Positions 9,488 to 31,251 are shown, numbered from the stretch's first letter. The stretch is DNA of 64,000 nucleotides from Candidatus Parcubacteria bacterium (GCA_037076615.1 AP029158.1:636299-700298), one strand, 5' to 3'. A program made the numbers and translations. Notes: a model not told the origin generated them from the letters alone.

Positions 9488-9502
9488 ATAATAAAATGCT
9501 CT

Positions 9503-13645: not shown

Positions 13646-14800
13646 ATGTTAACTAACGAGGAACAATTTTTAAATCGTTTACGAAAGAGCCAGAAACCGC
13701 TCCTTGTTTTTCCGGCCGATTGGCCCGGCGAGGCCGTCGCGGTTAGCATCACCCTTTTTCAATTACTCGAGAAGCTAGGAAAAGAACCAACTTTGGTGGC
13801 CGCCCCTTCGTGGCGTCAAAAAACTTGGAATTTTTTAGCACCCCTCAAAAAAATAAAACACCATTTAGATTCCTCCGGCCCCTTAATAATTAGTCTGCCG
13901 GCTAAAGAATCGGAAGTGGCCCGGATAAAATATAGCTACGACAGCGAGGAATTAAAATTTTTTATCTTCCCTAAAGAAAAAAATTTAAAGGCCAAAAACG
14001 TTAAAGCCGAAAACGCTTCTCCTCCTTATGATTTAATTATCGTTACCGGGGCGGCCGATTTGGATTCACTGGGGAGTATCTATAATGATAATATTGACCT
14101 ATTTTATAAAACCGATGTTATTAATTTAGATTGCCAAGCCGAGAACGAAGAATTTGGCGAAATTAATCTGGTTGATTTAAGTGCGGCAACGATTAGTGAG
14201 ATTTTATATTCCGCTTTATCAGAAAATGAGCGCCGCTTAATTGTCGGTGATGTGGCTACCAGCCTCTTGGCTGGTTTAATTGCCGGTACCAAAAGCTTTA
14301 AGAGTAGCCGGCTCACCCCCAAGACTTTAGAGTTAGCCTCTTTATTAATGGCGGCCGGCGGTGAACGAGAAAAAATAGTCAATCATCTTTATCGTTCCCG
14401 CAACTTCTCAACTTTAAAATTATGGGGGAAAGTTCTTGCCGGTTTGAAAGCGGAATTAAATAGCGCTTTAATTTGGTCATATATCCGTCAGGAAGATTTT
14501 AAAAATAGCGGTGCCAGTGCCGATAACTTAATTGATATTATCGACGAGTTAATTGCCAATATCCCCGAGGCTCGAGTGATTACTTTAATTTTTGAAGATC
14601 CGGAAAAAGTCGGAGAGCTAAAAGCTGTTTTATACGCCGCCAAAAACATGGATGCTTTAAAATTACTCAAAAATTATCAGCCGCAAGGAAACTTCCGCTT
14701 GGCTCAAGCCTCTTTACAGAAATCAGAAACTAATGAGAAAACTTTAGAAAAATATTTAAACACTCTTAAACAAGAACTAGCTACTTGGCTAGCACGCTAA
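13646..14800 (+). CDS. DHH/DHHA1 (NrnA-like) family protein with degenerate catalytic motifs
   Basis: Overall NrnA-like layout (LLAGLIAGTKSFKS resembles the DTGxF segment), but no DHH or GGGH motif could be found. Confidence 0.45.
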   Translation: MLTNEEQFLNRLRKSQKPLLVFPADWPGEAVAVSITLFQLLEKLGKEPTLVAAPSWRQKTWNFLAPLKKIKHHLDSSGPLIISLPAKESEVARIKYSYDSEELKFFIFPKEKNLKAKNVKAENASPPYDLIIVTGAADLDSLGSIYNDNIDLFYKTDVINLDCQAENEEFGEINLVDLSAATISEILYSALSENERRLIVGDVATSLLAGLIAGTKSFKSSRLTPKTLELASLLMAAGGEREKIVNHLYRSRNFSTLKLWGKVLAGLKAELNSALIWSYIRQEDFKNSGASADNLIDIIDELIANIPEARVITLIFEDPEKVGELKAVLYAAKNMDALKLLKNYQPQGNFRLAQASLQKSETNEKTLEKYLNTLKQELATWLAR

Positions 14801-14856: not shown

Positions 14857-14929
14857 GCGCCCATGGCTCAGTGGTTAGAGCACCGCTCTTATAAAGCGGG
14901 GGTCGATGGTTCAATTCCATCTGGGCGCA
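14857..14929 (+). tRNA. tRNA-Ile (anticodon UAU)
   Basis: Acceptor GCGCCCA/TGGGCGC, D arm GCTCAGTGGTTAGAGC, anticodon stem CCGCT/AGCGG, loop CTTATAA (34-36 = TAT), T-loop TTCAATT. Confidence 0.8.
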
Positions 14930-14994
14930 CTTTTGGTAAAAAAATATTTACTTTTAACCTTGTTGTTGCTAATATTAAATCAGGTTGGTAACGC

Positions 14995-15626: not shown

Positions 15627-17531
15627 ATGAAAAAAATAGAAAAGTGTCCACCAAAGAAAAATTTTTTTATCTTCTTGTGGGCATTTTTATTAATCTTATT
15701 ATTAACCAGCGGCGCAATTTCTTTTTTTGCTTGGAAACTTCACGCTAATAAAATTAACCCGGGCACTAGCGTCGGCACTATTTTAGTCGGCAATTTAACA
15801 ATCGGTGAAGCCCAGCAATTAATAGAAAAAAATCTGCAGGCTTGGGAGCAATCAGGTTTAGTGGTCCGACATAATGATACTCGCTTAGAAATTCCGGCAG
15901 CCATCCAGGTTAACGTCGAAGCTAGTTTGCCAATTTTTACTTGGCAGCCGGAGCCGATAAACCAATTTCTAACCAACAATCTTGGGGCTAAGTCTTGGCG
16001 ACGTTATTTAGCTAGCCACTTCAATCCCGCCCACTTAGATATTCCTTATTTCTTAAATGAGACCTTACTTAAAAACTATTTAACCGAAACTCTTCCTGAT
16101 CTTACCATTATTCCTCAAGATGCCCGCTTCATGGTTCGGGAAGATTTAAGCACTGATTGGGAATTTACCATTCAGCCGGAACAGATTGGCCGGCAAATTA
16201 ATTTTGAGGCCGCACTTAAAACAATTCATAAAAATTTAGCCACCCCAAGTAATGAGGAGGCAGTCCTCACAACCGAATTAGTTCGCCCTCAGGTTTATCA
16301 AGCTGATTTAGAAAATTTAAGACCGGCTGCTCAAGACTTGATTAGTCAAGGCGGTCTAACCTTAACTGTCACTGCTGAAGCGGATACTGCCACCAGCACT
16401 TGGTTAGTGCCAACTAGCACCGTGGCTACTTGGATTGTTCCTAAGTTTACCAATCAGTCGCAAACAGTCGGCTTGGATTCTAAAAAAATTGCCGCTTATT
16501 TAAGCGACCTAGTTGCCCCCGAGATTGATCGCGAACCTCAAGCACCTCGCTATGAACTGGCAGAAAATCGGCTAACTGATTGGTCTCCTGCTGTAATCGG
16601 CAAACAATTAGACACGGAAAAAAGCGCTAACGATATTTTAGAAAATTATTTAGAAAATAAAATTACGGAAACCGAGTTAAGCGTTAACCTACTCTTACCG
16701 GAAATAAAAAGTGATGACAACCCTTTAAGGATTGAGGAGACGATTGGAACCGGTCACTCTAATTTTTCTGGTTCTTCTAAAAACCGACGCCATAATATTA
16801 AAGTAGGCGCTGACACTTTACATGGCTTGCTCATTGCCCCCGGTGAAGAGTTTTCTTTAATTAAAGCTCTTGGCAATATGGATGCCAGTGGTGGCTACTT
16901 ACCGGAATACGTAATTAAAGGCGACAAAACCCAACTGGAATATGGTGGCGGCCTGTGTCAGGTGGCAACGACCATTTTCCGCTCCGCCCTAGGCTCTGGT
17001 CTCCCCATCACGATGCGCCAAAATCATTCTTACCGCGTTGGCTACTATGAGCCGGCCGGCATGGATGCGACTATTTATGATCCGCTTCCTGATGTTCGCT
17101 TTATTAATGATAGCCCCGATTATATATTGATTCAGGCGCGCATTGACGGCGATGATCTTTACTTTGATTTCTGGGGAAAGGAAGATGGCCGTCAAGCGAC
17201 GACCACCACGCCGGTAATTTTTAACATTGTTAAACCGGCGCCAACAAAAATTATTGAAACGACTGATCTCAAGCCAGGCGAAAAAAAATGTACCGAGAGT
17301 TCACATAATGGGGCCGATACTTATTTTGATTACACTGTTATCTATCCTGACGGCGAAGAAAAAATGGAGCGCTTTAAATCTCATTATGTCCCTTGGCAAG
17401 CGGTTTGTTTAGTTGGCGTCGATCCAGAAGCAAAAGCGGAAGAGGCCGAACAAGCAGAACAGACTGAGACTGAAACGGATTCCTCTCCCACCGCTAGCCC
17501 TACTCCAGAAACAGAGACGAAGTTGGAATAA
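15627..17531 (+). CDS. VanW-domain protein, membrane-anchored, with acidic Glu/Thr/Pro-rich tail
   Basis: N-terminal TM; VanW core GGGLCQVATTIFRSAL...MRQNHSY; C-terminal AEEAEQAEQTETETDSSPTASPTPETE. Confidence 0.8.
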   Translation: MKKIEKCPPKKNFFIFLWAFLLILLLTSGAISFFAWKLHANKINPGTSVGTILVGNLTIGEAQQLIEKNLQAWEQSGLVVRHNDTRLEIPAAIQVNVEASLPIFTWQPEPINQFLTNNLGAKSWRRYLASHFNPAHLDIPYFLNETLLKNYLTETLPDLTIIPQDARFMVREDLSTDWEFTIQPEQIGRQINFEAALKTIHKNLATPSNEEAVLTTELVRPQVYQADLENLRPAAQDLISQGGLTLTVTAEADTATSTWLVPTSTVATWIVPKFTNQSQTVGLDSKKIAAYLSDLVAPEIDREPQAPRYELAENRLTDWSPAVIGKQLDTEKSANDILENYLENKITETELSVNLLLPEIKSDDNPLRIEETIGTGHSNFSGSSKNRRHNIKVGADTLHGLLIAPGEEFSLIKALGNMDASGGYLPEYVIKGDKTQLEYGGGLCQVATTIFRSALGSGLPITMRQNHSYRVGYYEPAGMDATIYDPLPDVRFINDSPDYILIQARIDGDDLYFDFWGKEDGRQATTTTPVIFNIVKPAPTKIIETTDLKPGEKKCTESSHNGADTYFDYTVIYPDGEEKMERFKSHYVPWQAVCLVGVDPEAKAEEAEQAEQTETETDSSPTASPTPETETKLE

Positions 17532-17547
17532 TAACTAGTTAAGAAAA

Positions 17548-17761
17548 CCAAAAAGCCCCCACAGAGGGGGCGCTTTGATTTAAAAAAAGATCGTCTGAAA
17601 CGGGCAGGCAAGAAAATTTCTTCTAGGAATCCCCGAGCCTATGAGAGAATACCATTTTTGATATTATCTCACAGGCCCAAAAAACCCTAGCAAGAAAGTC
17701 CCCATGCTTGTCGTGCCTAACCCGTTTCAAACGACCTTAGTAAAAAGAACTGAAATGCTAA
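17548..17761 (-). ncRNA. candidate rod-shaped small RNA (6S-like architecture; identity unproven)
   Basis: Near-consensus promoter just upstream and a terminator at the 3' end. A long closing helix pairs 17590-17611 with 17713-17735. Inner helices are TTTCTTGCTAGG/CCTAGAAGAAA and GGGCCTGTGAGA/TCTCATAGGCTC. Several pairs are G-U only if the RNA is read on the minus strand. Confidence 0.4.
17551..17580. terminator. bidirectional terminator (VanW gene on +, small RNA candidate on -)
   Basis: Hairpin GCCCCC-ACAGA-GGGGGC with an A-run upstream and T-rich downstream sequence. Confidence 0.65.
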
Positions 17762-17767
17762 CGATTT

Positions 17768-17796
17768 AATATAGCATACCCTTAATTCTTTGTCAA
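17768..17796 (-). promoter_or_regulatory. near-consensus sigma70 promoter (minus strand)
   Basis: Minus-strand TTGACA (17796-17791), 17-nt spacer, TATATT (17773-17768). Confidence 0.6.
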
Positions 17797-17818
17797 CCCC
17801 CGAGAGCCAATAATCTGA

Positions 17819-18652
17819 TTAGGGGGCTTTTTTTAAATAAATATCTTTATTATTAGCAAAAATATTAATAGTGCCAACTTCGTCAGTACGAAAAATATTC
17901 GCCGCGACCGTTTCTAATCTTTTTAAAGTTTCTAGATGGGGATGAGAAAATTTATTATCTTTTCCGACTGAGATAATGGCAACAAGCGGCTTAACGGTTC
18001 TTAAAAAAATTTCCTGACTGGCACTGGCTGCTCCGTGATGAGAAACTTTTAAAACATCGTAAGTTTTTAAACCGCTGTCCAACAAATCAGCCTCGATTTC
18101 TTGACCGGCATCACCAGTAAATAAAAACTGGCGCTGACCGCAGACTAACTCACTCACCACTGACTGATCATTAATTTCTTTACTGGCGGCGGCGCTCAAA
18201 ATATTAACCTGACAATACTTTCCCAGCGAAAAAGAATCAGCCGCCGTAATTTTTTGTTTAGGAATTTTATTTTTTTCTAAATTACTAAACCACTCTTTAA
18301 TTAAAATATTATTCTCAGTCACCTCTCCATAAAAAACTTGCTTGATTCGATAACGATCACCCAACTCAAGCAAGCCGAGCAAATGATCGCTGTGCTCATG
18401 AGTCAGTAAAACAAAATCTAAGTGGCGCTGCCACCAAGGCAAGACGGTGCCCAACTCTTCTAAGAGACTATTATCAGGACCACCATCAATTAACAAAGTT
18501 TTTTTGTCCGGGGTCACAATTAAAATTGCATCACCTTGCCCAACGGAGAGAAAAGAAACTTTAACCGCGTCCCGCGGATATCGCGACAGTGGCAAAAAAA
18601 GTGTCAGTCCTAAGGAAAAAAATAGAGCGCTAACTAAAAGCAGGCGTTTCAT
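17819..18652 (-). CDS. ComEC-type metallo-beta-lactamase domain protein (stand-alone, signal-anchored)
   Basis: N-terminal hydrophobic anchor; FLSVGQGDAILIV...LLIDGG, HEHSDH, VSHHG motifs typical of the ComEC/Rec2 C-terminal MBL domain; no channel domain. Confidence 0.8.
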   Translation of the reverse strand: MKRLLLVSALFFSLGLTLFLPLSRYPRDAVKVSFLSVGQGDAILIVTPDKKTLLIDGGPDNSLLEELGTVLPWWQRHLDFVLLTHEHSDHLLGLLELGDRYRIKQVFYGEVTENNILIKEWFSNLEKNKIPKQKITAADSFSLGKYCQVNILSAAASKEINDQSVVSELVCGQRQFLFTGDAGQEIEADLLDSGLKTYDVLKVSHHGAASASQEIFLRTVKPLVAIISVGKDNKFSHPHLETLKRLETVAANIFRTDEVGTINIFANNKDIYLKKAP

Positions 18653-18753
18653 ATTTTTAGTCTAACACGGTGAGTATCAAGTTTTCCTCAATTACAAAAA
18701 TCGCCCGGAGAACGGACGATTTTTGTATAATTTTTAAATGGCTTAAAAAAGAA

Positions 18754-19110
18754 TTATTTTTTCTTTTTTGGAGCGGCCTTTTTCACAACTTTTTTAGAAG
18801 CTGCTTTTTTCGGAGCTGCTTTTTTAACCACCTTTTTGACTGCTTTTTTCGGAGCTGCCTTTTTCACAACTTTTTTAGGAGCTGCTTTTTTAACCACCTT
18901 TTTGACTGCTTTTTTCGGAGCAGCTTTTTTCACAACTTTTTTAGGAGCTGCTTTTTTAACCACCTTTTTGACTGCTTTTTTCGGAGCAGCTTTTTTCACA
19001 ACTTTTTTAGGAGCTGCTTTTTTAACCACCTTTTTGACTGCTTTTTTCGGAGCAGCTTTTTTAGGAGCGGCTTTCTTAACAACTTTTTTAGCCGGTTTTT
19101 TTGCGGGCAT
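18754..19110 (-). CDS. histone H1-like Lys/Ala/Pro/Val repeat protein
   Basis: 118 aa, almost entirely KKAAPKKAVKKVVKKAAPKKVV repeats; SD-like GGAGG upstream of the ATG; followed by a stop. Confidence 0.7.
   Translation of the reverse strand: MPAKKPAKKVVKKAAPKKAAPKKAVKKVVKKAAPKKVVKKAAPKKAVKKVVKKAAPKKVVKKAAPKKAVKKVVKKAAPKKVVKKAAPKKAVKKVVKKAAPKKAASKKVVKKAAPKKKK
18775..19075. repeat. 66-bp (22-codon) in-frame tandem repeat inside the Lys-rich gene
   Basis: Three full near-identical units at 18841-18906, 18907-18972 and 18973-19038, plus diverged partial units on both sides. Confidence 0.9.
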
Positions 19111-19223
19111 ATTTTCACCTCCTTTCAGTTGGAACTAATTTAAAATTTTTTTTAAAAAAAAATTACATCGACCGAAAACTTATTCTAATTATACATCCAG
19201 ATGAAAACGATAGCAATACTTTT

Positions 19224-20603
19224 TTATTTTTTTAAGCGAGTAAAAAAATATTTTTCCAATTCGGAAATTTTAATTCTCTCCTGAGTCATCGTATCACGAT
19301 CACGAACGGTCACCGTTTTATCTTCCAAACTATCAAAATCAACAGTAATACAAAACGGCGTCCCAATTTCATCTTGGCGACGATAACGCTTGCCGACATT
19401 ACCATTATCATCAAACTCACAAGAAAATTGGGATCGCAAATTATCATAAATTTTTCGCGCGGCCGTCACTAACTCTGTTTTATTTTTTAGTAAAGGAAAG
19501 ACGGCAATCGTGACCGGTGCTAAATCGGCCGGTAATTTTAAAACCACTCGGGTTTCTGTTTCCGAAATATTTTCTTCGTGATAAGCAGAAAGCAAGGTCA
19601 CTAAAAAACAACGATCCAAACCAAAGCTGGGCTCTAAGACGTGAGGCGTAACCTGACGATTAGTAGTAGCTTCAAAATATTCTAACTTCTGATGAGAAAA
19701 TTCACTGTGTTGTTTTAAATCAAAATCGCCGCGGTGAGCCAAGCCGCATAACTCTTTAAAACCACCAAAAGGCATATCGTATTCTAGGTCAACCGTCTTG
19801 CGGGAGTAGTGCGATAATTTTTCTCGCGGATGTTCGTAGCGCCGTATTTTTTGAGAGTCAATTCCTAAATCATCAACAAAAAAATGTTCCTGTTCCGCCA
19901 AAAGAGAATCAAACAATGATTGCCAGTCTTTTTCCGGATCAATAAAATACTCTAATTCCATTTGTTCAAATTCACGAGTTCGAAAAATAAAATTACCAAC
20001 GATAATTTCATTACGGAAAGCTTTACCAATTTGCGCAATCCCAAAAGGCAACTTCGGACGCATCACATCAACAACATTTTTGAACTCGGCAAAAATAGCC
20101 CCCGCTGTTTCTGGGCGCAAGTAGACCATTTCATCAACGCCATTCATCTCCGTTTTAAACATCATGTTAAAGAATCTGGCCGCGCTCCAATTCTTTGTTC
20201 CACAAGCCGGACAGGCAATTTCTGGCAGCGCTTTATTTAAGGCCTCTAAATCCCCTTCTAAATCTTGACCCGTGGCTTCGGCAACTAAATGATCGGCGCG
20301 CCAACGCTTGTGACATTTTTTACAATCAACCAGCGCATCATTAAAACCGCCGACGTGACCGCTGGCTTCCCATAACCGCGAAGGCAAAATAATTGGTCCA
20401 TCTAAACCATAGACTTCATCTCGACTAGAAACAAAACGATTCCACCATTTCCGTTTTATTTTATTTTTTAGCGTTACGCCGTAAGGGCCATAACTATAAG
20501 CCCCGGACAGGCCGCCATAAATTTCTCCGGCCGGAAAAACAAAGCCGCGCCTTTTGCAAAGAGAAACAATTTTTTCCATCAAATCATTAGTAGCTTCTTT
20601 CAT
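19224..20603 (-). CDS. glyQS: glycine--tRNA ligase (homodimeric GlyQS type)
   Basis: 459 aa; GLSGAYSYGPYGVTLKNKIKRKWW N-terminus, class II core, C-terminal anticodon-binding domain. Confidence 0.92.
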   Translation of the reverse strand: MKEATNDLMEKIVSLCKRRGFVFPAGEIYGGLSGAYSYGPYGVTLKNKIKRKWWNRFVSSRDEVYGLDGPIILPSRLWEASGHVGGFNDALVDCKKCHKRWRADHLVAEATGQDLEGDLEALNKALPEIACPACGTKNWSAARFFNMMFKTEMNGVDEMVYLRPETAGAIFAEFKNVVDVMRPKLPFGIAQIGKAFRNEIIVGNFIFRTREFEQMELEYFIDPEKDWQSLFDSLLAEQEHFFVDDLGIDSQKIRRYEHPREKLSHYSRKTVDLEYDMPFGGFKELCGLAHRGDFDLKQHSEFSHQKLEYFEATTNRQVTPHVLEPSFGLDRCFLVTLLSAYHEENISETETRVVLKLPADLAPVTIAVFPLLKNKTELVTAARKIYDNLRSQFSCEFDDNGNVGKRYRRQDEIGTPFCITVDFDSLEDKTVTVRDRDTMTQERIKISELEKYFFTRLKK

Positions 20604-20606
20604 ATT

Positions 20607-22295
20607 TTACATTTCCTCTAAATAAATAAGACCTAACAAATCAAAACCATTTTTTAAAACTTGACTACAGGCGCGTACTAACTGCAAGCGCCCCGCCGCC
20701 ACCCCTGGCGCCGCTTTCAGAATTGGCCGTTGTTGGTAGTAATCATTAAAGGCCTGTGCGAGCTCAAACAAATAACGAGCCACTATCGACGGATCGCGCT
20801 CAGTCGCCGCCTTACTAACCGTTTCTAAATAGCGTTCTAATTTTAAGGCCAGGACTAGTTCGGGCTCTTCATAATTAGCCCCCTCCTGACTCTCCAAAAT
20901 TTTTCCGCTTTTACTTAGTAAGCTGGCAACGCGGGCACCGGTATATTGTAAGTAAGCCGCCGTATAACCATCAAAACGTAAAGCTTCGCTAAGATCAAAA
21001 GTAATAATTTTATCAGCGGATACCTTAATCATTTCAAATTTTAAAGCACTGACCGCCAAACCGCGCGCCGTGGTAGCGACTTTTTCCGCCGACCAATCTT
21101 CGTGCCGTTTGATAATTTCTTCACGGGCCCGGGTCTCGGCCTCAGCTAAAACTTCTTGGAAGGTAATAACATTGCCAGTGCGCGAAGACATCATCCCGTT
21201 TTTCAAAGTCAAAAAATCATAACCCAAGTGCGTCATTTTTTCTTGATACCCCATCCGCTTTAAGATGGCAAACAATTGCTGAAAGTACAAACCCTGGCGG
21301 ATATCTACAACATAAATTGATTCGGCTAAATCATACTTGGCAAATTTAGCCGAGGCTAAAGCCAAGTCAGCGACCGCATAAAGAGCGGTGCCATCAGAAC
21401 GAATAATGGGCAAAACGCCTAAACCTTCAGTCTCTAAATCAGCAATAATAGCGCCTTCGCTTTTTTTAAGAATCCCCTTCGCCAACAGCTTATCTTTTAT
21501 TTCTAAACCTTGATCAATAAAATCACTCTCGTAAAAAGTATCGTCGAAGTGAATGTTTAAAATTTGATAAACAGCGGCAAAATAATCAATACTCCACTGA
21601 CGAGTCTCCTGCCATAACTGGTAAGCCTCCCCCTGACGACTCTCAATCGCCTTCATGATTTCACTGACCTCTCCCTTGGCAGTTTCATTGTCGCCAATTA
21701 ACTGGACGGCCTCACTATAACAACGACCCAATAAGTAGCCCCTCGGCTCGGTCGTCGTTGCATATTTTTCTTGCCGTTGCCAATTCCAAATAGTTTTGGC
21801 GGTATGAATACCAAAATCATTAATATAGGAAACCGGAATAACCTTTTCGCCCGCCGCCGCCAAAATTTTAGCCACCGCCGCTCCGTAAGAAATATTGCGC
21901 AGGTGGCCAACATGTAATTCTTTATGCGTATTACCATTTGAATACTCAATCATAACCGCCGGGGCTTCACGCTCAGAAACAGCGCCAAAATTTTTACCAC
22001 CACCGATAATCTCGGCGGTAGCCGCCGTCGTAAAAACATCGGGCTCTAAAAAGAAATTTAAATAAGGCCCCACCGCTCGCACCTCCTTAATTGCGGCCGG
22101 TAAATCGTCAGAAGAACTTGCGGCTGCCACTAACCTAGACGCTAATTCCTGCGCGCTAACTTTTTGTTTAGCGGCCTCGGTAAAGAGGGGCCAACTTAAG
22201 TGCCCCATTTTGGTCTCGGGCGGATAAACAAAATCCGTCGCCGCACAATTAAATTTTTTGGCCAATTCTTCTTTTAACTTTTCCAAGTAAACCAT
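20607..22295 (-). CDS. argS: arginine--tRNA ligase
   Basis: 562 aa; HVGHLRN (HIGH), MSSRTG (KMSKS-equivalent), DALR-type C-terminus ending in ...YLEEM. Confidence 0.92.
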   Translation of the reverse strand: MVYLEKLKEELAKKFNCAATDFVYPPETKMGHLSWPLFTEAAKQKVSAQELASRLVAAASSSDDLPAAIKEVRAVGPYLNFFLEPDVFTTAATAEIIGGGKNFGAVSEREAPAVMIEYSNGNTHKELHVGHLRNISYGAAVAKILAAAGEKVIPVSYINDFGIHTAKTIWNWQRQEKYATTTEPRGYLLGRCYSEAVQLIGDNETAKGEVSEIMKAIESRQGEAYQLWQETRQWSIDYFAAVYQILNIHFDDTFYESDFIDQGLEIKDKLLAKGILKKSEGAIIADLETEGLGVLPIIRSDGTALYAVADLALASAKFAKYDLAESIYVVDIRQGLYFQQLFAILKRMGYQEKMTHLGYDFLTLKNGMMSSRTGNVITFQEVLAEAETRAREEIIKRHEDWSAEKVATTARGLAVSALKFEMIKVSADKIITFDLSEALRFDGYTAAYLQYTGARVASLLSKSGKILESQEGANYEEPELVLALKLERYLETVSKAATERDPSIVARYLFELAQAFNDYYQQRPILKAAPGVAAGRLQLVRACSQVLKNGFDLLGLIYLEEM

Positions 22296-22451
22296 AAAAA
22301 TAAATCTACTCCCAAACCACCAAGAGCGACAGCTTGGAATACTCCTATTAAATATGCTACAATGTTAACAAATCTGCCAGTGTTTTTCAATCTTTAAGCG
22401 CTGTCTTAAAATTTTATTTTTTGCTAAACTTTAAAAAATATTTTTAAATCT

Positions 22452-23525
22452 ATGTCTATCCATCGACCCATTTTGAGCGCCGCCTGGCGCTTGGCAACAC
22501 GCCGAAAAAAACTCTGGGTTTTTGGTTTTTTTGCCCTCCTGGTTTTTATCGGTGGCGAATACCAAATCATTAATCAGTCTTTAAATAGTGGCTGGGGTGC
22601 TAATATTTATGAACGCCTTCTTACCGGCAGCAGCTTGCCACCAGAACTCTGGACCGCACTTCTTGGCGCTCTAAGTGTTGACTGGCGCACCAGTCTAGCG
22701 GTCATCATCTTGATTCTTCTGGTTACTGGTCTCCTATTCGGGGTTCTTTGGCTCGCAGTTAAATCGCAAATTGCCCTAATTCGTTGGGCGAAAAAAGATC
22801 ACATGGGCCAAGGCGACGAAGAGATTAGTTTATGGGAAGCGTTCACAGTTAAAGATGGGCGGTTTGGTCGAGTTTTAGCAGTTGGCGTATTAGTGGAAAT
22901 TATTATTTTTGCGACCGGCGTCTTTTTAAGTTTGCCTTTAATTTATCTGTATTTTAAAAACTCTCTCTGGGCCGTCGCCGCTTACTCCTTATTCTTCTTA
23001 ATTTTAATCCCGCTGGCTGTTTCCTTTTCTCTAATCGCTAAGTACGCTATGGCGGAAATAGTTTTAAAGAAAAAAGGCTTCACTGCTAGCGTCATTAGCG
23101 CTATTGAATTATTTAAAAAGAATTGGCTGGTTAGCTTAGAAATGGCTCTGATTCTTTTCTTTATCAACTTTAGCGTCAGCTTTATAATTCTCTTCCTCTT
23201 AACTTTTGTGGCCTTCCCGATCATGCTGACTTTGATGATCTTTGACTTAGCCCTGCCGCTAGCATTACTGATTCTTACTTGTTTTCTCCTGATAGTTTCC
23301 ATCGCTTCTTTCTTAATGACCTTCCAAACGACTGCCTGGACGAACCTCTATTTGAAAATTAAAGAACACGGGGCGCCCGCTAAAATTGAAAGAATTTTTG
23401 GAAAAGGCAAAAGCCCTAAAAAAACTCAGGCAGCCAAGGCTCCTGCCAAAACTACTAAAAAGCTGGTTTCTAAAAGGCCCCGAACCACCACCGCCAAAAA
23501 AACTACTCCTAAGAAAAAATCCTAA
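22452..23525 (+). CDS. polytopic membrane protein with Lys/Thr/Pro-rich C-terminal tail
   Basis: About 6-7 hydrophobic helices; tail GKSPKKTQAAKAPAKTTKKLVSKRPRTTTAKKTTPKKKS; stop lies 3 nt before the ATPase gene start. Confidence 0.6.
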   Translation: MSIHRPILSAAWRLATRRKKLWVFGFFALLVFIGGEYQIINQSLNSGWGANIYERLLTGSSLPPELWTALLGALSVDWRTSLAVIILILLVTGLLFGVLWLAVKSQIALIRWAKKDHMGQGDEEISLWEAFTVKDGRFGRVLAVGVLVEIIIFATGVFLSLPLIYLYFKNSLWAVAAYSLFFLILIPLAVSFSLIAKYAMAEIVLKKKGFTASVISAIELFKKNWLVSLEMALILFFINFSVSFIILFLLTFVAFPIMLTLMIFDLALPLALLILTCFLLIVSIASFLMTFQTTAWTNLYLKIKEHGAPAKIERIFGKGKSPKKTQAAKAPAKTTKKLVSKRPRTTTAKKTTPKKKS

Positions 23526-23528
23526 GCT

Positions 23529-26500
23529 ATGAATCTGAGCTCCATTGACAATTTAATTACCGACGAGGAGCCAGAAGAAGGCTCGGCGTTAGATAACTTT
23601 TCTCGAAAACAGAAAGAAATTAAAGCCCGCGAAATTGAACGCGAAGCGGAAAGACAAGCCCGACTACTCGGACTTCCTTATATTAATCTCGGTAGCTTTC
23701 CGATCAGCAGCGACGCCTTAGGTTTAGTAGAAGAAATGAGGGCTCGCGACTTAAACTTAGTTTGCTTTTTTTATGACGGCAAAGATTTTAGATTAGGGAC
23801 GACTAACCCCACGACTGAAGTAAAAGAATTTGCCGAAGAGCTCCAAAAAAAATTATACGCCAATGGAGTATTATTTTTTATCTCTGAAAATAGTTTGCAA
23901 CACGCTCTTGAGCTTTACAAAAACCTGCCGAAAGTTACCCCCTACACCGGCACGGTCGAGATCAGCCCCCAAAAATTAGTAGAGTTCCAAGAAGACTTAG
24001 CTGATTACCGCAAGTTAAACGAGCGCATCAACGAAGTTAACATCAGCGATGTTATTACTTTAATATTGGCGGCTGCCATTCGTTCCGGATCTAGCGATGT
24101 CCACGTTGAGGCGGAAGCTCGCGGCTCGGTTATTCGCCTCCGCATTGATGGCGTTTTGCACGAAGCGGCGGTGATTACTGGTGAGAAGTGGCGACGAATA
24201 GCCACCCGTCTAAAAATTCTTGCTAAGGCAAAAATTAATATCACCAATCAACCTCAGGATGGCCGTTTTAGTGTTCGCCTTGACGACCGTAAACTTGATG
24301 TCCGGTGCTCCTTTTTGCCAACAGCTTTTGGTGAGAGCGTGGTACTGCGCTTACTTGATTCTTCGGCGCAATCTTTATCTTTTGAGCGCCTGGGCTTAAG
24401 AGCAGAAGTTTTAAAAATACTCAAAGCTCAAATCAAAAAACCAAACGGCATGATTTTGACCGCCGGCCCAACTGGTTCCGGAAAAACGACGACTCTTTAT
24501 GCGATTTTAAACGAATTAAATAAACCGAATATAAAGATTATTACTCTAGAAAATCCGATTGAATATCAGTTACCCGGGATTAACCAGAGCCAAATTTCTG
24601 AAGATAAGGGCTATACTTTTGCCGAGGCCTTGCGCTCCGTCTTGCGTCAAGATCCAAATATTTTAATGGTAGGTGAAATCCGCGATTCAGAAACAGCTAA
24701 GATTGCTTTACAATCTTCAATTACTGGCCATTTAGTTTTATCAACCGTACACACCAACGATGCCGCGGGTGTGATTCCGCGCTTATTAGATTTAGAAGTT
24801 GAACCTTATCTACTGCCACCGTCTCTAAACGCCGTTATCGGGCAACGTTTAGTGCGCCGTCTTTGCCCGCACTGCCGCAAGCCTCACAAGTTGAGTAACC
24901 TCGAAAAAGAACAAATTAATAAAATTATTGGGGTCATTTCCCCCAAGTCAGGGGTGAGTGTTCCCGACCAGTTACCTCAACTCTGGAAAGTAGGCGAGGG
25001 GTGCCCGGAATGCAGTTACACCGGCTATCATGGCCGAATTGGAATTTACGAACTATTTACGATGGATGAAAAAATAAAACAGCTCACCATTGATCGGGCC
25101 CCGTCTTTTAAAATTCTCCAACAAGCCATTGAGAACGGAATGATTACCATGCTTCAAGATGGTATTTTAAAGTGCTTTGAAGGTATTACTTCAATTGAAG
25201 AGGTTTACCGTGTGGTCGGTGACTTTGATTATATCAACGAAATTTACGATATCGTTATTTCTCAAACTATTGGTCGCGGTCTAATCATCAAGGAGACGGA
25301 CCTAGCCCAAGCGAGAGAAACCACAATTGATATTAAAGCCCTTTCAGAACAGGTTAAAGTAATCTCACCCCGAGAAATTGTTAATTTAATTATGTCGCTA
25401 GCGATAGTTAAAGACGCGGGCGATGTTCATATTGAGCCCACTGACAATTTAGTTAAAGTTCGCTTCCGAATTGACGGGGTCTTACACGACATCACTAACC
25501 TCCCGAAAACTTCCTATTTACCGGTTCTAGCGGAAATGAAAATTTTAGCCGGTTTTGAAACTAACGTGAAGCGCGCCACTCTTGATGGTCGCTTTAGCTT
25601 ACACCTACCGCAACGAAAAATGGATTGTCGTATTTCGATTATCGCGGGCGGCTATGGAGAAACCATTGTAATTCGTTTATTATCGGCGGCGGCAGTGAGT
25701 CTGGATTTAGAGGAACTGGGCGTTAGCGGCCCTTCTTTTGATTGTTTGACTAAGGCGATGTCGAAGACTAAGGGTATTATTATTACGACCGGACCAACTG
25801 GCTCTGGTAAAACCACGACCCTCTACGCCATTTTGAATAAGTTAAACCGACCTGATATTAAAATTATCACCGTTGAGGATCCGATTGAGTATCAACTACC
25901 AGGAACTATTCAAACCCAGATTGATACCGAACGGGGCTACACTTTTGCCTCGGCTATGCGTTCCTTGTTGCGTCAAAATCCAAACATCATGATGATTGGT
26001 GAAATTCGCGATGCGGAAACAGCCAAAATTGCCATTGAAGCGGCCTCCACTGGCCACTTAGTGCTCTCGACGATTCATGCTAATTCGGCGGCCGGAGCGA
26101 TTTCTCGCTTCTCTGGTTTAGGTGTCGAGCGTCAAGCCCTGGCTAACGCCTTAGAATTTTCTATTGGCCAACGGTTAGTTCGACGGCTTTGTAAGCATTG
26201 CCGCCAACCCGCACACATCGATGAGGAAACACTTAGCCGCGTGCGCAGTATTTTATTACAAGTTAAAAACCCGCGAATTAAAATCCCTCAAGATTTAATA
26301 TTTTATACCGCTCCCGGCTGCGAGCACTGCAACCATATTGGCTATAAAGGAAGAGTAGGAATCTATGAGACTATTACCACCACCCCCACCATTATGAAGC
26401 TGATTCAGGATAACCTCATTACTGATTATGAGATTGAGCAAGCAGCGATTGCCGAAGGAATGGTGCCGATTGTAGTTGATGGTATCTTAAAAGCCTTAGC

Positions 26501-26540
26501 TGGAGAAACCAGTTTAGACGAAATTTTCAGAGTAATTTAA
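23529..26540 (+). CDS. tandem (double-core) GspE/PilB-family secretion/pilus ATPase
   Basis: Two complete cores. Walker A is GPTGSGKTTTLYAIL in both. Walker B regions are DPNILMVGEIRD and NPNIMMIGEIRD. His boxes are GHLVLSTVH and GHLVLSTIH. Each core has a CxxC...CxxC cluster. A T2SS-E N-terminal-like domain occurs only at the very N-terminus. Confidence 0.88.
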   Translation: MNLSSIDNLITDEEPEEGSALDNFSRKQKEIKAREIEREAERQARLLGLPYINLGSFPISSDALGLVEEMRARDLNLVCFFYDGKDFRLGTTNPTTEVKEFAEELQKKLYANGVLFFISENSLQHALELYKNLPKVTPYTGTVEISPQKLVEFQEDLADYRKLNERINEVNISDVITLILAAAIRSGSSDVHVEAEARGSVIRLRIDGVLHEAAVITGEKWRRIATRLKILAKAKINITNQPQDGRFSVRLDDRKLDVRCSFLPTAFGESVVLRLLDSSAQSLSFERLGLRAEVLKILKAQIKKPNGMILTAGPTGSGKTTTLYAILNELNKPNIKIITLENPIEYQLPGINQSQISEDKGYTFAEALRSVLRQDPNILMVGEIRDSETAKIALQSSITGHLVLSTVHTNDAAGVIPRLLDLEVEPYLLPPSLNAVIGQRLVRRLCPHCRKPHKLSNLEKEQINKIIGVISPKSGVSVPDQLPQLWKVGEGCPECSYTGYHGRIGIYELFTMDEKIKQLTIDRAPSFKILQQAIENGMITMLQDGILKCFEGITSIEEVYRVVGDFDYINEIYDIVISQTIGRGLIIKETDLAQARETTIDIKALSEQVKVISPREIVNLIMSLAIVKDAGDVHIEPTDNLVKVRFRIDGVLHDITNLPKTSYLPVLAEMKILAGFETNVKRATLDGRFSLHLPQRKMDCRISIIAGGYGETIVIRLLSAAAVSLDLEELGVSGPSFDCLTKAMSKTKGIIITTGPTGSGKTTTLYAILNKLNRPDIKIITVEDPIEYQLPGTIQTQIDTERGYTFASAMRSLLRQNPNIMMIGEIRDAETAKIAIEAASTGHLVLSTIHANSAAGAISRFSGLGVERQALANALEFSIGQRLVRRLCKHCRQPAHIDEETLSRVRSILLQVKNPRIKIPQDLIFYTAPGCEHCNHIGYKGRVGIYETITTTPTIMKLIQDNLITDYEIEQAAIAEGMVPIVVDGILKALAGETSLDEIFRVI

Positions 26541-26543
26541 TTT

Positions 26544-27119
26544 ATGCTTAATAAGAAATTTTTTGCTGATTTAATTGCTAACTACCGGGAGCAATCCCAA
26601 TCACGACGAGAAATTATCGCCGCCACTGCCCCGATTTTGTTTGCGGCTAAAACAGCCATCTTCTCCCTACACCGAGGCGAAGAAGAAAAGGCGCGCCAAA
26701 ATTTAGAGACAGCCACTGCTGCTTTAAAAACTTTACAAACCGACTATCCGCTGGAGCGATTAGAAGAAGAAGGTGCTTACCGAGCGGCGGTTGAAGAATT
26801 TGCCGAAGCTTCGTTCTTGGAACAAGCAGTTTTAAAAAATACTTTAAGTGCTAACTCTGAGGTTACCTTAAACTACGAGGCTTACTTGGGTGGCTTATGC
26901 GATTTAGTTGGCGAGTTAGTCCGTCTAGCAACTAACCGAGCCGCGGCGGGACAACTTGAGGCGCCGGCCGAATTAAAAGTTTTGGCTGATGAGGTTTTGG
27001 CGGCATTAGCGCCGGCAAATTTTACCAGCTACCTGCGAACAAAATACGATCAAGCCAATAGCCACCTGCGCAAACTTGAACAGATGGCTTACGAAATTCG
27101 TTTACGTCAAAACGCATGA
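26544..27119 (+). CDS. translin-family protein
   Basis: 191 aa; YLGGLCDLVGELVRLATN...LRTKYDQANSHLRKLEQMAYEI matches the recalled translin/TRAX C-terminal signature (YxxGxxDxxGELxR ... LRKRYD). Confidence 0.6.
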   Translation: MLNKKFFADLIANYREQSQSRREIIAATAPILFAAKTAIFSLHRGEEEKARQNLETATAALKTLQTDYPLERLEEEGAYRAAVEEFAEASFLEQAVLKNTLSANSEVTLNYEAYLGGLCDLVGELVRLATNRAAAGQLEAPAELKVLADEVLAALAPANFTSYLRTKYDQANSHLRKLEQMAYEIRLRQNA

Positions 27120-27610
27120 GCTTAGTGGCGATTTTTTCCGACCTGCATGACAACCTAAATAACTTAGATTTATTTTTAACTAAGGCCCGCGCCCAAAAAG
27201 TCGCGGCCCTTATTTTTACCGGCGACTTAACGAGCGCCGAAACCTTGAATTATCTTGCCTCGCAGTGGGACAAGCCGCTTTATTTAGTTGGCGGCAATGC
27301 CGACCTCTTTCGAAGCACTGATACTAAAAAGCGCCCCCACCTTATTTATGACGAGAATTATTTAGATTTTACTTACGAGAATTTTGACTTCTTAATTGCC
27401 CACAAGCCGACTGATTTAAAAAAAATTCTCGCTACTAACACTGTTTACGATTTCGCTTTTTACGGTCACACCCACCGCCCTTGGATAAAAAATGAAGGCG
27501 GCGTAATTATCGCCAACCCCGGTAATTTAAAAGATGGGTTCGGCCAAGCCACCTACGCTCTTTTAGATACGAGGAGTGGCTACTTAAAATTAAAAAGACT
27601 AAGTGATTAA
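27116..27610 (+). CDS. YfcE/MJ0936-type metallophosphoesterase
   Basis: Motifs SDLHDN, GDL, GGNAD, YGHTHRP; 4-nt overlap with the upstream gene. Confidence 0.8.
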   Translation: MSLVAIFSDLHDNLNNLDLFLTKARAQKVAALIFTGDLTSAETLNYLASQWDKPLYLVGGNADLFRSTDTKKRPHLIYDENYLDFTYENFDFLIAHKPTDLKKILATNTVYDFAFYGHTHRPWIKNEGGVIIANPGNLKDGFGQATYALLDTRSGYLKLKRLSD

Positions 27611-27612
27611 GA

Positions 27613-27642
27613 AAAACGGCTCCAGCAAGGAGCCGTTTTTTT
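27613..27642. terminator. bidirectional terminator between convergent genes
   Basis: Hairpin AAAACGGCTCC-AGCAA-GGAGCCGTTTT plus a T-run. Confidence 0.75.
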
Positions 27643-30100
27643 ATTTCAATTTTCTTAGATATTGGCCGGTATAACTTTCTTTTACTTTAGCTACCTGAGC
27701 GGGCGTCCCAGCGGCGACTACGTGTCCCCCCATCTTTCCGCCCTCAGGCCCAAGATCAATCAGCCAGTCGCAAGTTTTAATTAAATCTAGATTGTGTTCA
27801 ATAACCAAAACCGTATTCCCTTGCTCAACTAAAAGATTAAGAACTTTTAAGAGGCGATCGATATCGGCAAAATGAAGGCCGGTGGTGGGCTCGTCTAAAA
27901 TATAAAGAGTTCGACCGGTTGAACGTCTGGCTAGCTCTGTTGCGAGCTTAATTCGTTGGGCTTCACCACCAGAAAAGGTCGTCGCGGCTTGACCTAGTTT
28001 TATATAACCCAAACCAACCTGATCTAAGATTTCTAACTTATGATGCAGCGCGCTTTGGTCGCGAAAAAAAGAAAGGGCTTCTTTAACTGTTAAATTAAGA
28101 ACTTCAAAAATATTTTTTCCCTGATACTTAACGGCGAGAACTTTAGGTTTAAAGCGTTGCCCCCCACAAGCTTCGCAATTCAAATAAACATCCGCCAAAA
28201 ATTGCATCTCCACTTTTATCACCCCGTCGCCGCGACAAGCTTCACAGCGACCACCGGGAACATTAAAGGAAAAATCTCCCGCCGTTAAGCCGCGGGTTTT
28301 TGATTCCGATAAATTTGCATAGAGATCACGAACATAGCTAAAAATACCCGTATAGGTGGCGGGGTTAGACCGAGGCGTCCGCCCAATTGGAGACTGATCA
28401 ATAGCAATCACTTTATCAATATTTTCCAGGCCGATGATTTTCTTATGTTTGCCCGGGATAGCTTTGGCTCGATAAAAATGACGATTTAAAGTCTTGGCTA
28501 AAATATCATTCATTAGGGTAGATTTTCCCGAACCTGAGACTCCAGTAATCGCCACCAACTTACCCAGCGGTAAACGCACATCAATATTTTTTAAATTATG
28601 TTCGCTGGCGCCAATAATTTCTAAGAATTTACCCATCCCTAAATGATCGCGACCACGCGGTTGAATTTTTTTACGACCGGCTAAATAATCACCGGTTAAA
28701 GACTGCGGACAGTCAACAATCTCGCTAGGGGGACCGGCATAAATAATCTCGCCGCCATAATCACCCGCCCCGGGACCAATATCAATTAAGTAGTCCGCCG
28801 ACCGTATCATTTGCGCATCATGCTCAACGACAATTACGGTATTACCGTTATCCCGCAAACTCTTTAAAATTTCAATCAGTTTCTGGTTATCCCTTTCGTG
28901 CAAACCAATTGAGGGCTCGTCTAAAATATAGATGACACCACTTAGGCCCGCTCCAGCTTGAGTGGCCAGGCGTAAACGTTGCGCTTCGCCACCAGAAAGA
29001 CTGGCCGCCCCGCGCGATAAACTTAAATAGCCCAAGCCAACGTGTTGTAAAAATGTTACCTTTTTTAAGACCTCATTTAAGATTGGCTGAGTGACAGCGG
29101 TTAGGCCGGTTTTCGCCGCTAACCATTTATTAAGTACCTCAGAAAAAGAATCAAGATCTAAATCGGCTAAAGCAGCTAAATTATAATTATGGAATTTTAC
29201 GGCCAAGGCCTCAAGATTTAAACGCGCGCCCTCGCAACTGCGGCACGTAAAAGATAACATCGCTTTTTCAAGCTCCTGTTTAACAAAGTTTGATCGCGTT
29301 TCCTGATAACGTTTATTTAAGTAAGAGACGATGCCGTCAAATTTAGAATCACCATGCAATAAAGCTTTTTTTTGATCTTCTTTTAAATCTCTAATTTCCG
29401 TATCCAAGGTAAAACCCTCGCGAGCCGCCAGGGCCGCTAGATCGCGAAGTAACTCTTGCTGACGGTTAGAATTATTAAAAGATAAAACCTTAATTGCCCC
29501 TTGAGCTAAACTTAATTTTTGATTAAAGATTAAACTTTCCTCTACCAGCAATTCTGTTCCCAATCCGGTACAAGTTGGACAAGCGCCGGCGGTAGAGTTA
29601 AAAGAAAAATCGCGAGCTTCGAGCGGTAGACGGCAGTAGCCGCAAGCTAAACACTCCCAACCACCATTAACCTTGGCGGCTTCCGGACTATCTTTTTGGC
29701 ACTTAATTTTTTTTAACTTAGCACCACAATGAGGGCAATAAGGAACGCCGGCTCGAGCATAGAGTAGGCGCAGATAATCATAAATTTCCGTAATCGTGCC
29801 CACGGTTGAACGCGGGTTGTTGCCGATGGTACGCTGATCAATAGAAATCGCGGGTGATAAACCTTCAATAATATCCACCTCCGGGCGATCACTTAGATCC
29901 ATAAATTGGCGGGCGTAAGAAGACAATGATTCAACATAGCGACGCTGCCCCTCAGCATAAATCGTGTCAAAAGCCAATGAGGATTTACCGGAACCAGACA
30001 AGCCAGTAATCACGGTTAATTGATTGCGTGGAATCGTTAGGCTTAAATTTTTTAAATTGTTCGCGCGTGCCCCTTTTATTTTTATAAAATCAACCGCCAT
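27641..30100 (-). CDS. UvrA-family ABC ATPase lacking the UvrB-binding domain (class II UvrA-like)
   Basis: 819 aa; two ABC modules ([18 protein letters not shown]; LSGGEAQR and FSGGEAQR). Only about 40 aa separate CPHCG from [17 protein letters not shown], the position I recall as holding the UvrB-binding domain in canonical UvrA. Confidence 0.8.
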
Positions 30101-30213
30101 AAAGTCGAAATTTAGAAAATTATTAGCCTACATTATAAAGATTATTAGCCAATAAATCAAGAGCGGGCCAATTAAAAAACGGCCCGGAGGCCGTCGCAAC
30201 TGAATCTTTCCTC

Positions 30214-31251
30214 TTAAAAAAGTGGTTCTAAAAACTTAATTATGGCCAACAACAAGCGATCAGACCATTTTATTTTTCTCTTCTTCTCTTTAAGTGGGGT
30301 GCTGGTCTTTTTCCAATTATCAAAAATTCTGAGCAGATTTCGGACCGCCTCTTGTTGAGAAAAGAAAATACCGACTTCAAAATTTACGCCAAAAGACAAA
30401 ATATCTAAATTTTGCGAACCGACCACGGCCTCCCTATCATCAATAATCATTATTTTAGAATGATTCATCACGGGAAGAAAATAACAGCGGGCACCGAGAG
30501 CGCTTAGTCGCCCCGCATTTAAATAATTAACCCTATTTAAGGAGCGGTGATCAGTATTTTTTGGCATTAAAATTTCCACCCGCACGCCCCGCCTTAGGGC
30601 GCCATCAATAAGAGCCATTAACCAACGTGGGGGGGCTAAATAAGGAGAAGTCATCTTAACACTTTTCTGAGCGTTAACGATTTTCTCTCGGTAATAACTA
30701 TCCAGATAATAGGCCTTACGCGAACGTGGCCAATTATCAACTACCCACGCCTTAATTTTTCTTGATAAAGCCTGTTCTGAATAGGCTAAAATTTGCAGAT
30801 TCTTGCCACCAGAAATTTTGTAAGTATAAGCAAAGCTTTTTATAATCGGTTTCACCACCGCCCCCGAAACCCGCATTGTTAAATCATTCCACTGCTGAGT
30901 ATTTTTCTTGATATTCGCCCCGCCAATAAAGGCTAATTTTTTATCAATAACCAATATTTTTCGGTGACTGCGATAAAGAAGGTGGCTAAAAAAATGTAAG
31001 TCGACGCCGGCTGTTTTCAGTCTTTTGATCGCCTCTTTTGATAAACTATAACTGCCAAAAGCATCTAAAACCAAAGCGACGGAAACACCCGCCTCGGCTT
31101 TAGTAACCAATAAGCCCACAAAGTCATGAGTCTCGCTGGTGTCTTCTAAAAAAATATACATTTCTAAAAAAACAGACTCCCGCGCCTGACTAATGGCTTG
31201 GTACATACCTGACCAAACGCTGCTAGATTTTGTATAAAAGCGATAAGACAT
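30214..31251 (-). CDS. phospholipase D / cardiolipin synthase-like protein (two HKD motifs)
   Basis: HRKILVIDKKLAFIGGANI and HSKIMIIDDREAVVGSQNL. Confidence 0.85.
   Translation of the reverse strand: MSYRFYTKSSSVWSGMYQAISQARESVFLEMYIFLEDTSETHDFVGLLVTKAEAGVSVALVLDAFGSYSLSKEAIKRLKTAGVDLHFFSHLLYRSHRKILVIDKKLAFIGGANIKKNTQQWNDLTMRVSGAVVKPIIKSFAYTYKISGGKNLQILAYSEQALSRKIKAWVVDNWPRSRKAYYLDSYYREKIVNAQKSVKMTSPYLAPPRWLMALIDGALRRGVRVEILMPKNTDHRSLNRVNYLNAGRLSALGARCYFLPVMNHSKIMIIDDREAVVGSQNLDILSFGVNFEVGIFFSQQEAVRNLLRIFDNWKKTSTPLKEKKRKIKWSDRLLLAIIKFLEPLF

Follow-up and report, generated by a model that had tools for sequence, protein, structure and literature searches.

A conserved patescibacterial operon that combines a tandem PilB/GspE-class ATPase, a C3PO-like translin-family protein and a YfcE-type phosphodiesterase

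Overview

The window analyzed here, a 64,000-nucleotide (nt) stretch of DNA from a Candidatus Parcubacteria bacterium (GCA_037076615.1 AP029158.1:636299-700298), contains on its plus strand, at positions 22452-27610, an operon of four genes. They encode, in order, a polytopic membrane protein, an ATPase with two complete PilB/GspE-type motor units in a single chain, a translin-superfamily protein of the archaeal C3PO type, and a YfcE/MJ0936-type metallophosphodiesterase. Our analysis establishes the identities of these genes, the intactness of the active sites, the structure of the operon and its conservation. We tentatively propose, as a reading that falls somewhat short of being probable, that an uptake motor and a nuclease/phosphodiesterase pair are linked here at the level of a pathway, in which nucleic acid is captured and imported and then digested. 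A first-pass annotation of the window, made by a model from the sequence, had suggested, as a speculation, that the four genes form a single module for nucleic acid translocation and processing; a connection between uptake and salvage is plausible, whereas one machine that both translocates and trims is not supported, for the reasons given below.

The operon is genuine and vertically inherited, and its host is a Falkowbacteria-like (Parcubacteria group) patescibacterium; relatives are labelled Patescibacteria or Falkowbacteria, and the GC content of the locus (0.42-0.45) is like that of its surroundings. A protein recorded for 'Candidatus Parcubacteria bacterium' on a contig of 717 kb shows 100% identity to the membrane protein. 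Each of the proteins belongs to a known superfamily. In the literature searched, we found no published description of tandem PilB ATPases, and nothing relevant on Patescibacteria translins, on the membrane partner or DUF7544, or on the pili of Falkowbacteria. Within this scope, the covalent tandem PilB motor, its conserved non-PilC membrane neighbour, and the abundance in one bacterial group of intact C3PO-like nucleases, together with their conserved location next to the motor, appear to be undescribed.

The tandem PilB/GspE-class ATPase

The ATPase is matched by the Pfam T2SSE profile (PF00437) in two separate stretches (E 3.7e-226), and the Walker A, Asp box, Walker B, His box and Cys4 zinc motifs are present in both of the corresponding modules, which share ~45% identity with each other. 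Across 102 unique tandem orthologues the catalytic and zinc motifs show at least 95% conservation in both modules, and the two cores have the same mean conservation (0.70 for module 1 and 0.71 for module 2), indicating that both are under selection. Module 2 has a conserved linker, G.FdY..e.YDiViSQTiGRG, in place of an N-terminal domain. Three tandem chains, each carrying two intact motor units, would make up the usual hexamer. When scored alone against the curated equivalog profiles, module 1 obtains 474 bits with GspE and 467 bits with PilB, the alignment starting at residue 15, and module 2 obtains 412 and 398 bits, respectively. The full-length protein scores 860 bits (PilB) and 880 bits (GspE) and clears the cut-offs of 675.65 (TIGR02538, PilB) and 630.25 (TIGR02533, GspE), because two motor units sum where a single unit fails.

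A search of 1.84 billion representatives recovered, outside the close relatives, ~14 further clusters at the 50% identity level (in the range P0271-P0285) that share the ~1000-residue tandem layout at 35-58% identity, and both sets of motifs are retained in the 13 other tandem representatives examined. In a neighbour-joining tree of the half-proteins, which carries no support values, the first halves from the window's clade branch beside the single ATPases of related clusters, and the second halves group with the second halves of two other tandems. The two halves of the tandems P0277 and P0279 instead pair with each other. This pattern suggests more than one origin of the tandem fusion, which apparently arose by independent duplications. 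Tandem ATPases are also found in two other lineages (L170 784-3786 and L171 8001-11057); both are near RuvB and have archease or a DHH phosphoesterase among their neighbours, and one of them lies directly 3' of the DHH phosphoesterase gene. A covalently doubled PilB motor, maintained in more than 100 species, offers a natural experiment on the use that hexameric motors of this kind make of adjacent subunits.

In the PilB family, the ATPase drives assembly of the filament by way of a platform protein. The 64-kb window contains no second T2SSE gene. Genomes of the Candidate Phyla Radiation (CPR) generally encode PilB, PilT, PilC, PilM/N/O, PilD and pilins together with ComEC, and CPR bacteria, which lack nucleotide synthesis, are thought to scavenge DNA via type IV pili and ComEC (PMC6744442). 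In the genus Patescibacterium (class ABY1), for which two genomes have been closed, one each of pilB, pilC, pilM and pilT was counted, and the authors state that DNA uptake compensates for the missing nucleotide synthesis (PMC11809585). The contigs of this genus correspond to Falkowbacteria in the NCBI taxonomy. The presence of one pilB and one pilC in this related genus favours an ordinary pilus motor; by analogy, the window's ATPase is probably the pilus or competence motor of its lineage, and probably its sole PilB, partnered with a PilC whose gene lies elsewhere.

The C3PO-like nuclease and the YfcE-type phosphodiesterase

The product of the third gene matches the Translin profile (PF01997) over residues 21-188 with 65.5 bits (gathering threshold, 25.9), and a sequence search of the PDB with this protein recovers translin, the Nanoarchaeum NeC3PO and the Archaeoglobus AfTRAX. 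The AlphaFold2 (AF2) model, with a predicted local distance difference test score (pLDDT) of 96.4, displays the seven-helix translin fold, and its best Foldseek matches are NeC3PO, translin, human C3PO and AfC3PO (TM-scores 0.78-0.85, probability 1.00). NeC3PO uses two-metal catalysis through Glu82, Glu85, Asp117 and Glu121, with Arg124 binding the substrate (PMC5100593). These residues align with E85, E88, D120, E124 and R127 of the window protein, which do not vary among 38 diverse homologues and show at least 95% conservation in a set of 73. The translin-family assignment made in the first-pass annotation is therefore secure at the levels of profile, fold and active site. Both the alignment and the model suggest a catalytically competent form of the single-gene archaeal C3PO type, whose predicted activity is the metal-dependent cleavage of single-stranded nucleic acid. 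No signal peptide could be recognized by eye, suggesting that the protein is probably cytoplasmic.

The same annotation had described translins as rare in bacteria, a statement that needs to be qualified. The only bacterial occurrence of C3PO named in a 2016 paper is in Chloroflexi (PMC5100593). In the present Patescibacteria group, two queries recovered 691 and 1298 clusters of the family, such that translin-family nucleases are common in one bacterial group rather than a rarity.

The last gene encodes a protein with a strong match to Metallophos_2 (E 2.2e-25) and a score of 61.6 bits with TIGR00040 (yfcE), above the curated cut-off of 56.25. Conservation across 72 sequences is at least 95% for the metal-ligand motifs D9-x-H11, G36-D37, G60-N61, H96 and G117-H-x-H120, and the YfcE/MJ0936-type assignment that had been proposed for this gene is thus borne out, with its metal ligands intact. 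The two enzymes probably degrade single-stranded nucleic acid.

The membrane protein

The membrane protein shows no Pfam or NCBIfam match, T2SSF included, at E-values up to 0.1. Its homologues fall in only 34 clusters, and all those with a named taxon belong to Patescibacteria. When 27 members of the family were scanned individually, 15 matched DUF7544 (best E 3.5e-5), four matched Choline_transpo (best E 4.2e-6) and three matched GPDPase_memb, whereas none matched T2SSF; the homologue in L168 also has a precomputed DUF7544 match. The AF2 model is all-helical (pLDDT 77, predicted template-modelling score 0.71), and its best PDB folds, namely CTL1 and yeast PNS1, are weak Foldseek matches (E ~0.1, TM-scores 0.36-0.40); no PilC/GspF chain is among the 50 Foldseek PDB matches listed. 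Hence, the earlier impression that the protein is unlike the PilC/GspF platform is upheld concordantly by the profile search, the family scan and the fold search: the protein is not PilC/GspF, and represents a Patescibacteria-restricted family with a weak resemblance to DUF7544, GPDPase_memb and choline-transporter-like (SLC44/PNS1) proteins.

Hydropathy and the positive-inside rule suggest six helices with both termini in the cytoplasm. In this predicted topology the conserved residues S105/Q106, F221/W225/E230, F291/Q292/W296 and R314 would be located at the cytoplasmic ends of helices. The invariant residues of the family are W22, F24, G25, E230 and P256. The protein had been called "Lys-tailed", and its C-terminal 41 residues do include 16 Lys or Arg and no Asp or Glu; the tail has a pLDDT below 50 and is predicted to be disordered and cytoplasmic. 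The long form of the tail is confined to the closest relatives (at least 51% identity), and we accordingly rejected it as a feature of the family. A similar composition is seen in a 118-residue protein encoded elsewhere in the window (18754-19110, minus strand), which consists almost entirely of Lys/Ala/Pro/Val repeats (KKAAPKK-VVKK) reminiscent of the tails of histone H1 and Hc2. It has no Pfam match, and its tandemly repeated DNA also yields spurious plus-strand open reading frames (ORFs) at 18670-19143 and 18836-19138.

The adjacency of the membrane protein and the ATPase raises the question of a dedicated envelope machine independent of PilC, in which the membrane protein would serve as platform or channel, and the nuclease and the phosphodiesterase would process the nucleic acid that is moved. 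The two genes are adjacent in at least 7 independent contexts with gaps of 0-150 nt, no PilC is encoded nearby, the conserved residues would be positioned on the cytoplasmic side, as the positive-inside rule suggests, and the partial distance correlation is highest for this pair (0.46), which is weak evidence. Against this, the protein has no cytoplasmic domains of the PilC kind, and its fold is reminiscent of small-molecule transporters; L079 and L163 have it but not the ATPase, while the ATPase occurs without it in L063, L170 and L171; and the related genus mentioned above has one pilB and one pilC. Furthermore, PilB/GspE-family ATPases are not known to thread or move nucleic acid directly. 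We consider such a machine unlikely, and its most explicit form, a PilC-independent motor physically coupled to the C3PO-like nuclease and the YfcE-type enzyme as an import-and-digestion machine of nucleotide-auxotrophic Patescibacteria, to be likewise improbable.

Across the loci examined, the membrane protein gene lies 3' of the FtsH gene in seven contexts, as often as it lies 5' of the ATPase gene. The functional link of the protein may thus be with FtsH instead of the ATPase. Associated in this way with both, the non-PilC membrane protein defines an uncharacterised family worth testing.

Conservation within the clade of the window

A genome scan with the translin-like protein yielded 75 loci at the species level. 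A further 80 loci (L083-L162), from wastewater and groundwater sets, came from a metagenome scan with a narrower alignment of the membrane protein; all were of the same clade, with no new contexts. The order membrane protein, tandem ATPase, translin-like protein, phosphoesterase is found in 116 of the 117 loci that possess all four genes, with gaps below 400 nt (mostly below 90 nt), and the sole exception has a broken ATPase gene. This order persists at identities that fall to ~30% for the membrane protein, 60% for the ATPase, 44% for the translin-like protein and 33% for the phosphoesterase. The neighbourhood has thus been retained in relatives, both in nearly all clade loci that could be assessed and in three remoter lineages whose flanks are different. 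In many of the relatives a tyrS gene is present on the opposite strand between argS and the operon (e.g. L005 2584-3867), forming an aminoacyl-tRNA synthetase (aaRS) trio glyS-argS-tyrS; the window lacks tyrS at this position.

The combination of an ATPase, a nuclease, a phosphoesterase and a potential membrane effector is superficially like the gene content of defence systems, and an anti-phage or mobile island might be considered. PADLOC reported no more than P-loop noise for the ATPase, and the remaining three proteins gave no match; the operon has a fixed chromosomal position and has been vertically inherited across more than 100 species-level genomes; and its GC content resembles that of the surroundings, with no mobility genes. 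A role in defence is thus hardly credible.

Comparison of distance matrices from 46 genomes showed that all gene pairs correlate (0.62-0.92). After the housekeeping signal was regressed out, the control gene argS still correlated at 0.70 with the membrane protein and 0.72 with the phosphoesterase, equal to the pairs within the operon. Because the control correlates as strongly as the operon genes, this test of co-evolution is uninformative.

The operon in wider lineages

Outside the clade the cluster is encountered in several partial forms. Three loci, L166-L168, were reached through remoter homologues of the translin-like protein. In L167 and L168 the genes for an S1-domain protein, FtsH, the membrane protein, a single ATPase, the translin-like protein and the phosphoesterase are contiguous; L166 has the same S1-FtsH string, likewise with a single ATPase, but two unrelated genes intervene ahead of the phosphoesterase. 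The single ATPases of L166-L168 are 568-579 residues long, the membrane-protein homologues of these loci show 28-34% identity to that of the window (E 1e-25 to 1e-38), and the downstream flanks differ. The S1-FtsH-membrane protein string recurs in L079, L081 and L164-L168; in L079 and L163 the membrane-protein homologue is not accompanied by the ATPase. In L063 the adjacency of the ATPase and the translin-like protein is kept and the membrane protein gene is absent, and in L169 the translin-like gene is followed by one small gene and then by the phosphoesterase. Genes for a PGA_cap/CapA-like protein and a Trp_Tyr_perm-type permease are situated between the translin-like and phosphoesterase genes in L063 (8585-13291) and L166 (8783-11054), showing that the translin-phosphoesterase pair can be split without the loss of either member. 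In L076 a 380-residue protein with a weak Baseplate_J match (8920-10062) takes the place of both after the membrane protein-ATPase pair.

The cluster is thus composed of two separable modules, namely the membrane protein with the ATPase, and the nuclease pair. The gene strings of the more distant lineages suggest a history in which an old FtsH-membrane protein-ATPase string was likely joined, in one subgroup, by the translin-phosphoesterase pair, in some cases with uvrA. The duplication and fusion of the ATPase was likely the last step, in the clade of the window.

Pathway-level link or inherited gene order

In the mechanism that we tentatively favour, the ATPase would be a pilus motor that drives a type IV competence pseudopilus, with PilC, PilM and the pilins encoded elsewhere, and the captured DNA would enter via ComEC. 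The C3PO-like nuclease would use two-metal catalysis to cleave single-stranded RNA or DNA within an oligomeric shell, and the YfcE-type Mn/Ni phosphodiesterase could finish off the short products. The nucleases would thus act on imported nucleic acid and might help to yield nucleotides in an organism unable to make them, and co-transcription would represent a link in a pathway rather than mere gene order. The location of a nuclease pair directly behind an uptake motor in a nucleotide auxotroph fits such a link.

Several observations weigh against this reading. Genes for PilC, PilM/N/O, pilins or the ComEC channel are found neither in the 64-kb window nor in any 8-kb flank examined. Neither module of the ATPase alone reaches the curated PilB or GspE cut-off, and the protein is therefore a PilB/GspE-class ATPase rather than a certified equivalog. 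None of the three operon partners stands alongside the tandem ATPases of L170 and L171, and the membrane protein is found with a single ATPase, and no translin-like protein or phosphoesterase, in L076 (Magasanikbacteria), L081 and L165. The flanks are as conserved as the operon itself, with argS upstream at 121 loci and uvrA downstream at 117, both on the strand opposite to the operon, such that clade-wide synteny alone says little about function. Moreover, uvrA also lies 3' of the phosphoesterase in L063, L167, L168 and L169; with argS/uvrA synteny as strong as that of the operon, gene order in this group may persist without function. The substrate of the eukaryotic C3PO is RNA. The archaeal TRAX homologue is linked to the tRNA enzyme SepRS and not to uptake (PMC5424206).

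Much of this would be accommodated by a gene order that is merely inherited, with the nucleases serving general RNA and tRNA turnover, as the tRNA-related linkage of archaeal TRAX might indicate, and the membrane protein being an unrelated transporter-like or FtsH-associated protein; the ATPase would be the pilus motor in this case too, and the four products would not be coupled in function. The packing of a streamlined genome could preserve the four genes just as it preserves argS and uvrA; in the wider lineages the string begins with the housekeeping genes S1 and FtsH, the membrane protein is beside FtsH as often as beside the ATPase, the pairs separate, and the distance-matrix correlations are no higher than those of the control gene. 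On the other hand, the four-gene order outlives the changes of flanks between the window's clade and L166, L167 and L168, the ATPase remains adjacent to the translin-like gene in L063 after the loss of the membrane protein gene, and the intergenic distances are very short. We regard inherited gene order, the main rival, as a rather doubtful explanation that nevertheless has to be taken seriously, and retain, with due reserve, the pathway-level link between motor and nucleases.

A self-contained translocon is not supported. The single translocate-and-trim module of the first-pass annotation lacks support in the form proposed: PilB-type ATPases drive pilus assembly and are not known to thread nucleic acid, the cluster splits into separable pairs, the flanking genes are equally syntenic, adjacency of the membrane protein to FtsH is as frequent as adjacency to the ATPase, and the lone pilB and pilC of the related genus favour an ordinary pilus motor. 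What the operon does offer is a pair of enzymes, the nuclease and the phosphodiesterase, that are testable candidates for the digestion half of nucleic acid salvage, i.e. the steps that follow DNA uptake in nucleotide-auxotrophic Patescibacteria.

Anatomy of the operon and other features of the window

The ORF listing of the window gives spacings of 3, 3 and -4 nt between the four plus-strand genes (Table 1), confirming the layout of two 3-nt gaps and a 4-nt overlap recorded earlier. The divergent spacer of 156 nt between argS (minus strand) and the operon contains two candidate sigma-70-like promoters, recognized by consensus matches only: TTGGAA-18-TACAAT with a TG extension (22334-22363) and TTTTCA-17-TAAAAT (22384-22412). 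The strong terminator reported at the other end is a hairpin with a 14-bp stem that includes 6 G-C pairs and is followed by a T-run (-20.9 kcal/mol, z = -7.85; none of 200 shuffled sequences was as stable). The uvrA gene (27641-30100, minus strand) is convergent with the operon, and the terminator is able to serve it too because an A-run is present on the upstream side of the hairpin and the T-run on the downstream side. An RNA leader or riboswitch was rejected, as an Rfam scan of 17000-31000 at E-values up to 0.1 detected no RNA element.

Table 1. Positions of the operon genes, their parts and the associated signals in the window (aa, amino acids)
Feature	Position	Strand	Basis
Two sigma-70-like promoter candidates	22334..22412	+	Consensus matches only
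Membrane protein, 357 aa	22452..23525	+	ORF listing
Lys-rich C-terminal tail of the membrane protein, residues 317-357	23400..23522	+	Composition, model
ATPase, whole ORF, 1003 aa	23529..26540	+	ORF listing, T2SSE twice
ATPase module 1, residues 1-563: N-terminal domain and complete PilB/GspE N2-CTD core	23529..25217	+	Profiles, motifs
ATPase module 2, residues 564-1003: conserved linker and second complete N2-CTD core	25218..26540	+	Profiles, motifs
Translin-superfamily protein, archaeal C3PO/TRAX-like, 191 aa	26544..27119	+	PF01997, fold, active site
YfcE/MJ0936-type metallophosphodiesterase, 164 aa; 4-nt overlap with the end of the translin gene	27116..27610	+	Metallophos_2, TIGR00040
Bidirectional intrinsic terminator, operon and convergent uvrA	27610..27642	.	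Hairpin, T-run, A-run

The lone domain resembling the metallo-beta-lactamase (MBL) nuclease of ComEC that had been noted in the window is indeed a stand-alone protein of the MBL fold (277 residues, 17819-18652, minus strand), with matches to Lactamase_B and Lactamase_B_2. MBL-type genes are also encountered in the wider lineages, a few kb upstream of the S1-FtsH-membrane protein-ATPase string in L168 (1-246), and as Lactamase_B_3 genes upstream in L079 and L081.

The housekeeping genes of the window comprise pheST, valS, glyS, argS, topA, uvrA and those for SMC, TsaD, EF-P, SSB and S6. A tRNA-Ile gene with the anticodon TAT (14857-14930) represents an uncommon bacterial way of reading AUA. Two further genes lie a few kb from that for EF-P (38071-38628), namely one for a short class II aaRS-like protein of 372 residues (42079-43197) that matches tRNA-synt_2 only, and one for a 385-residue protein with a weak HisRS-like match (45995-47152); the former may not be a synthetase but an EpmA-like paralogue that modifies EF-P. 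Five ORFs of 272-550 residues (13646-14800, 47981-48913, 50052-50945, 51014-51832 and 54882-56534) have no Pfam match at E-values up to 0.001.

Comparison with known systems

The competence pathway, with its type IV pseudopilus, ComEC and cytoplasmic processing, is among the closest known systems, in that a gene for a pilus-type motor is co-expressed in the operon with enzymes of single-stranded nucleic acid, and the lineage of the window is likewise reported to depend on DNA uptake. The known competence operons contain ComG-type pilins with a platform, or ComEA, ComEC, ComFA and DprA, and include neither a translin-type nuclease nor YfcE, whereas the operon of the window has none of these competence components.

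Among the individual proteins, the ATPase shares with PilB, GspE and ComGA the T2SSE domain, an N-terminal region, the catalytic motifs and the tetracysteine zinc motif. It differs from them in fusing two complete N2-CTD units in one chain of 1003 residues, and in being preceded by the gene for a non-PilC membrane protein, with no PilC, PilM or pilin gene nearby. The membrane protein resembles PilC/GspF in being a polytopic inner-membrane protein encoded beside a PilB-type ATPase, but it has neither T2SSF nor the cytoplasmic helical-bundle domains, its predicted architecture being one of six helices with short loops.

The translin-like protein is most similar to the homo-oligomeric archaeal C3PO (NeC3PO, PDB: 5JR9 and 5JRC; AfC3PO, PDB: 3ZC1), with which it shares a length of ~190 residues, an all-helical structure superposing at a TM-score of ~0.8, and the Glu-Glu-Asp-Glu tetrad with the following Arg in register. 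In contrast to these, it is bacterial, shows only ~21% identity to them, and is encoded in synteny with a pilus-type ATPase and a YfcE-type enzyme, while the archaeal gene is linked with SepRS. The phosphodiesterase, by its score above the curated cut-off of TIGR00040 and its full complement of dinuclear-metal ligand motifs, is a member of the YfcE/MJ0936 family; what distinguishes it from the known members is its conserved place directly 3' of a C3PO-like nuclease, which constitutes a previously undescribed association for this family.

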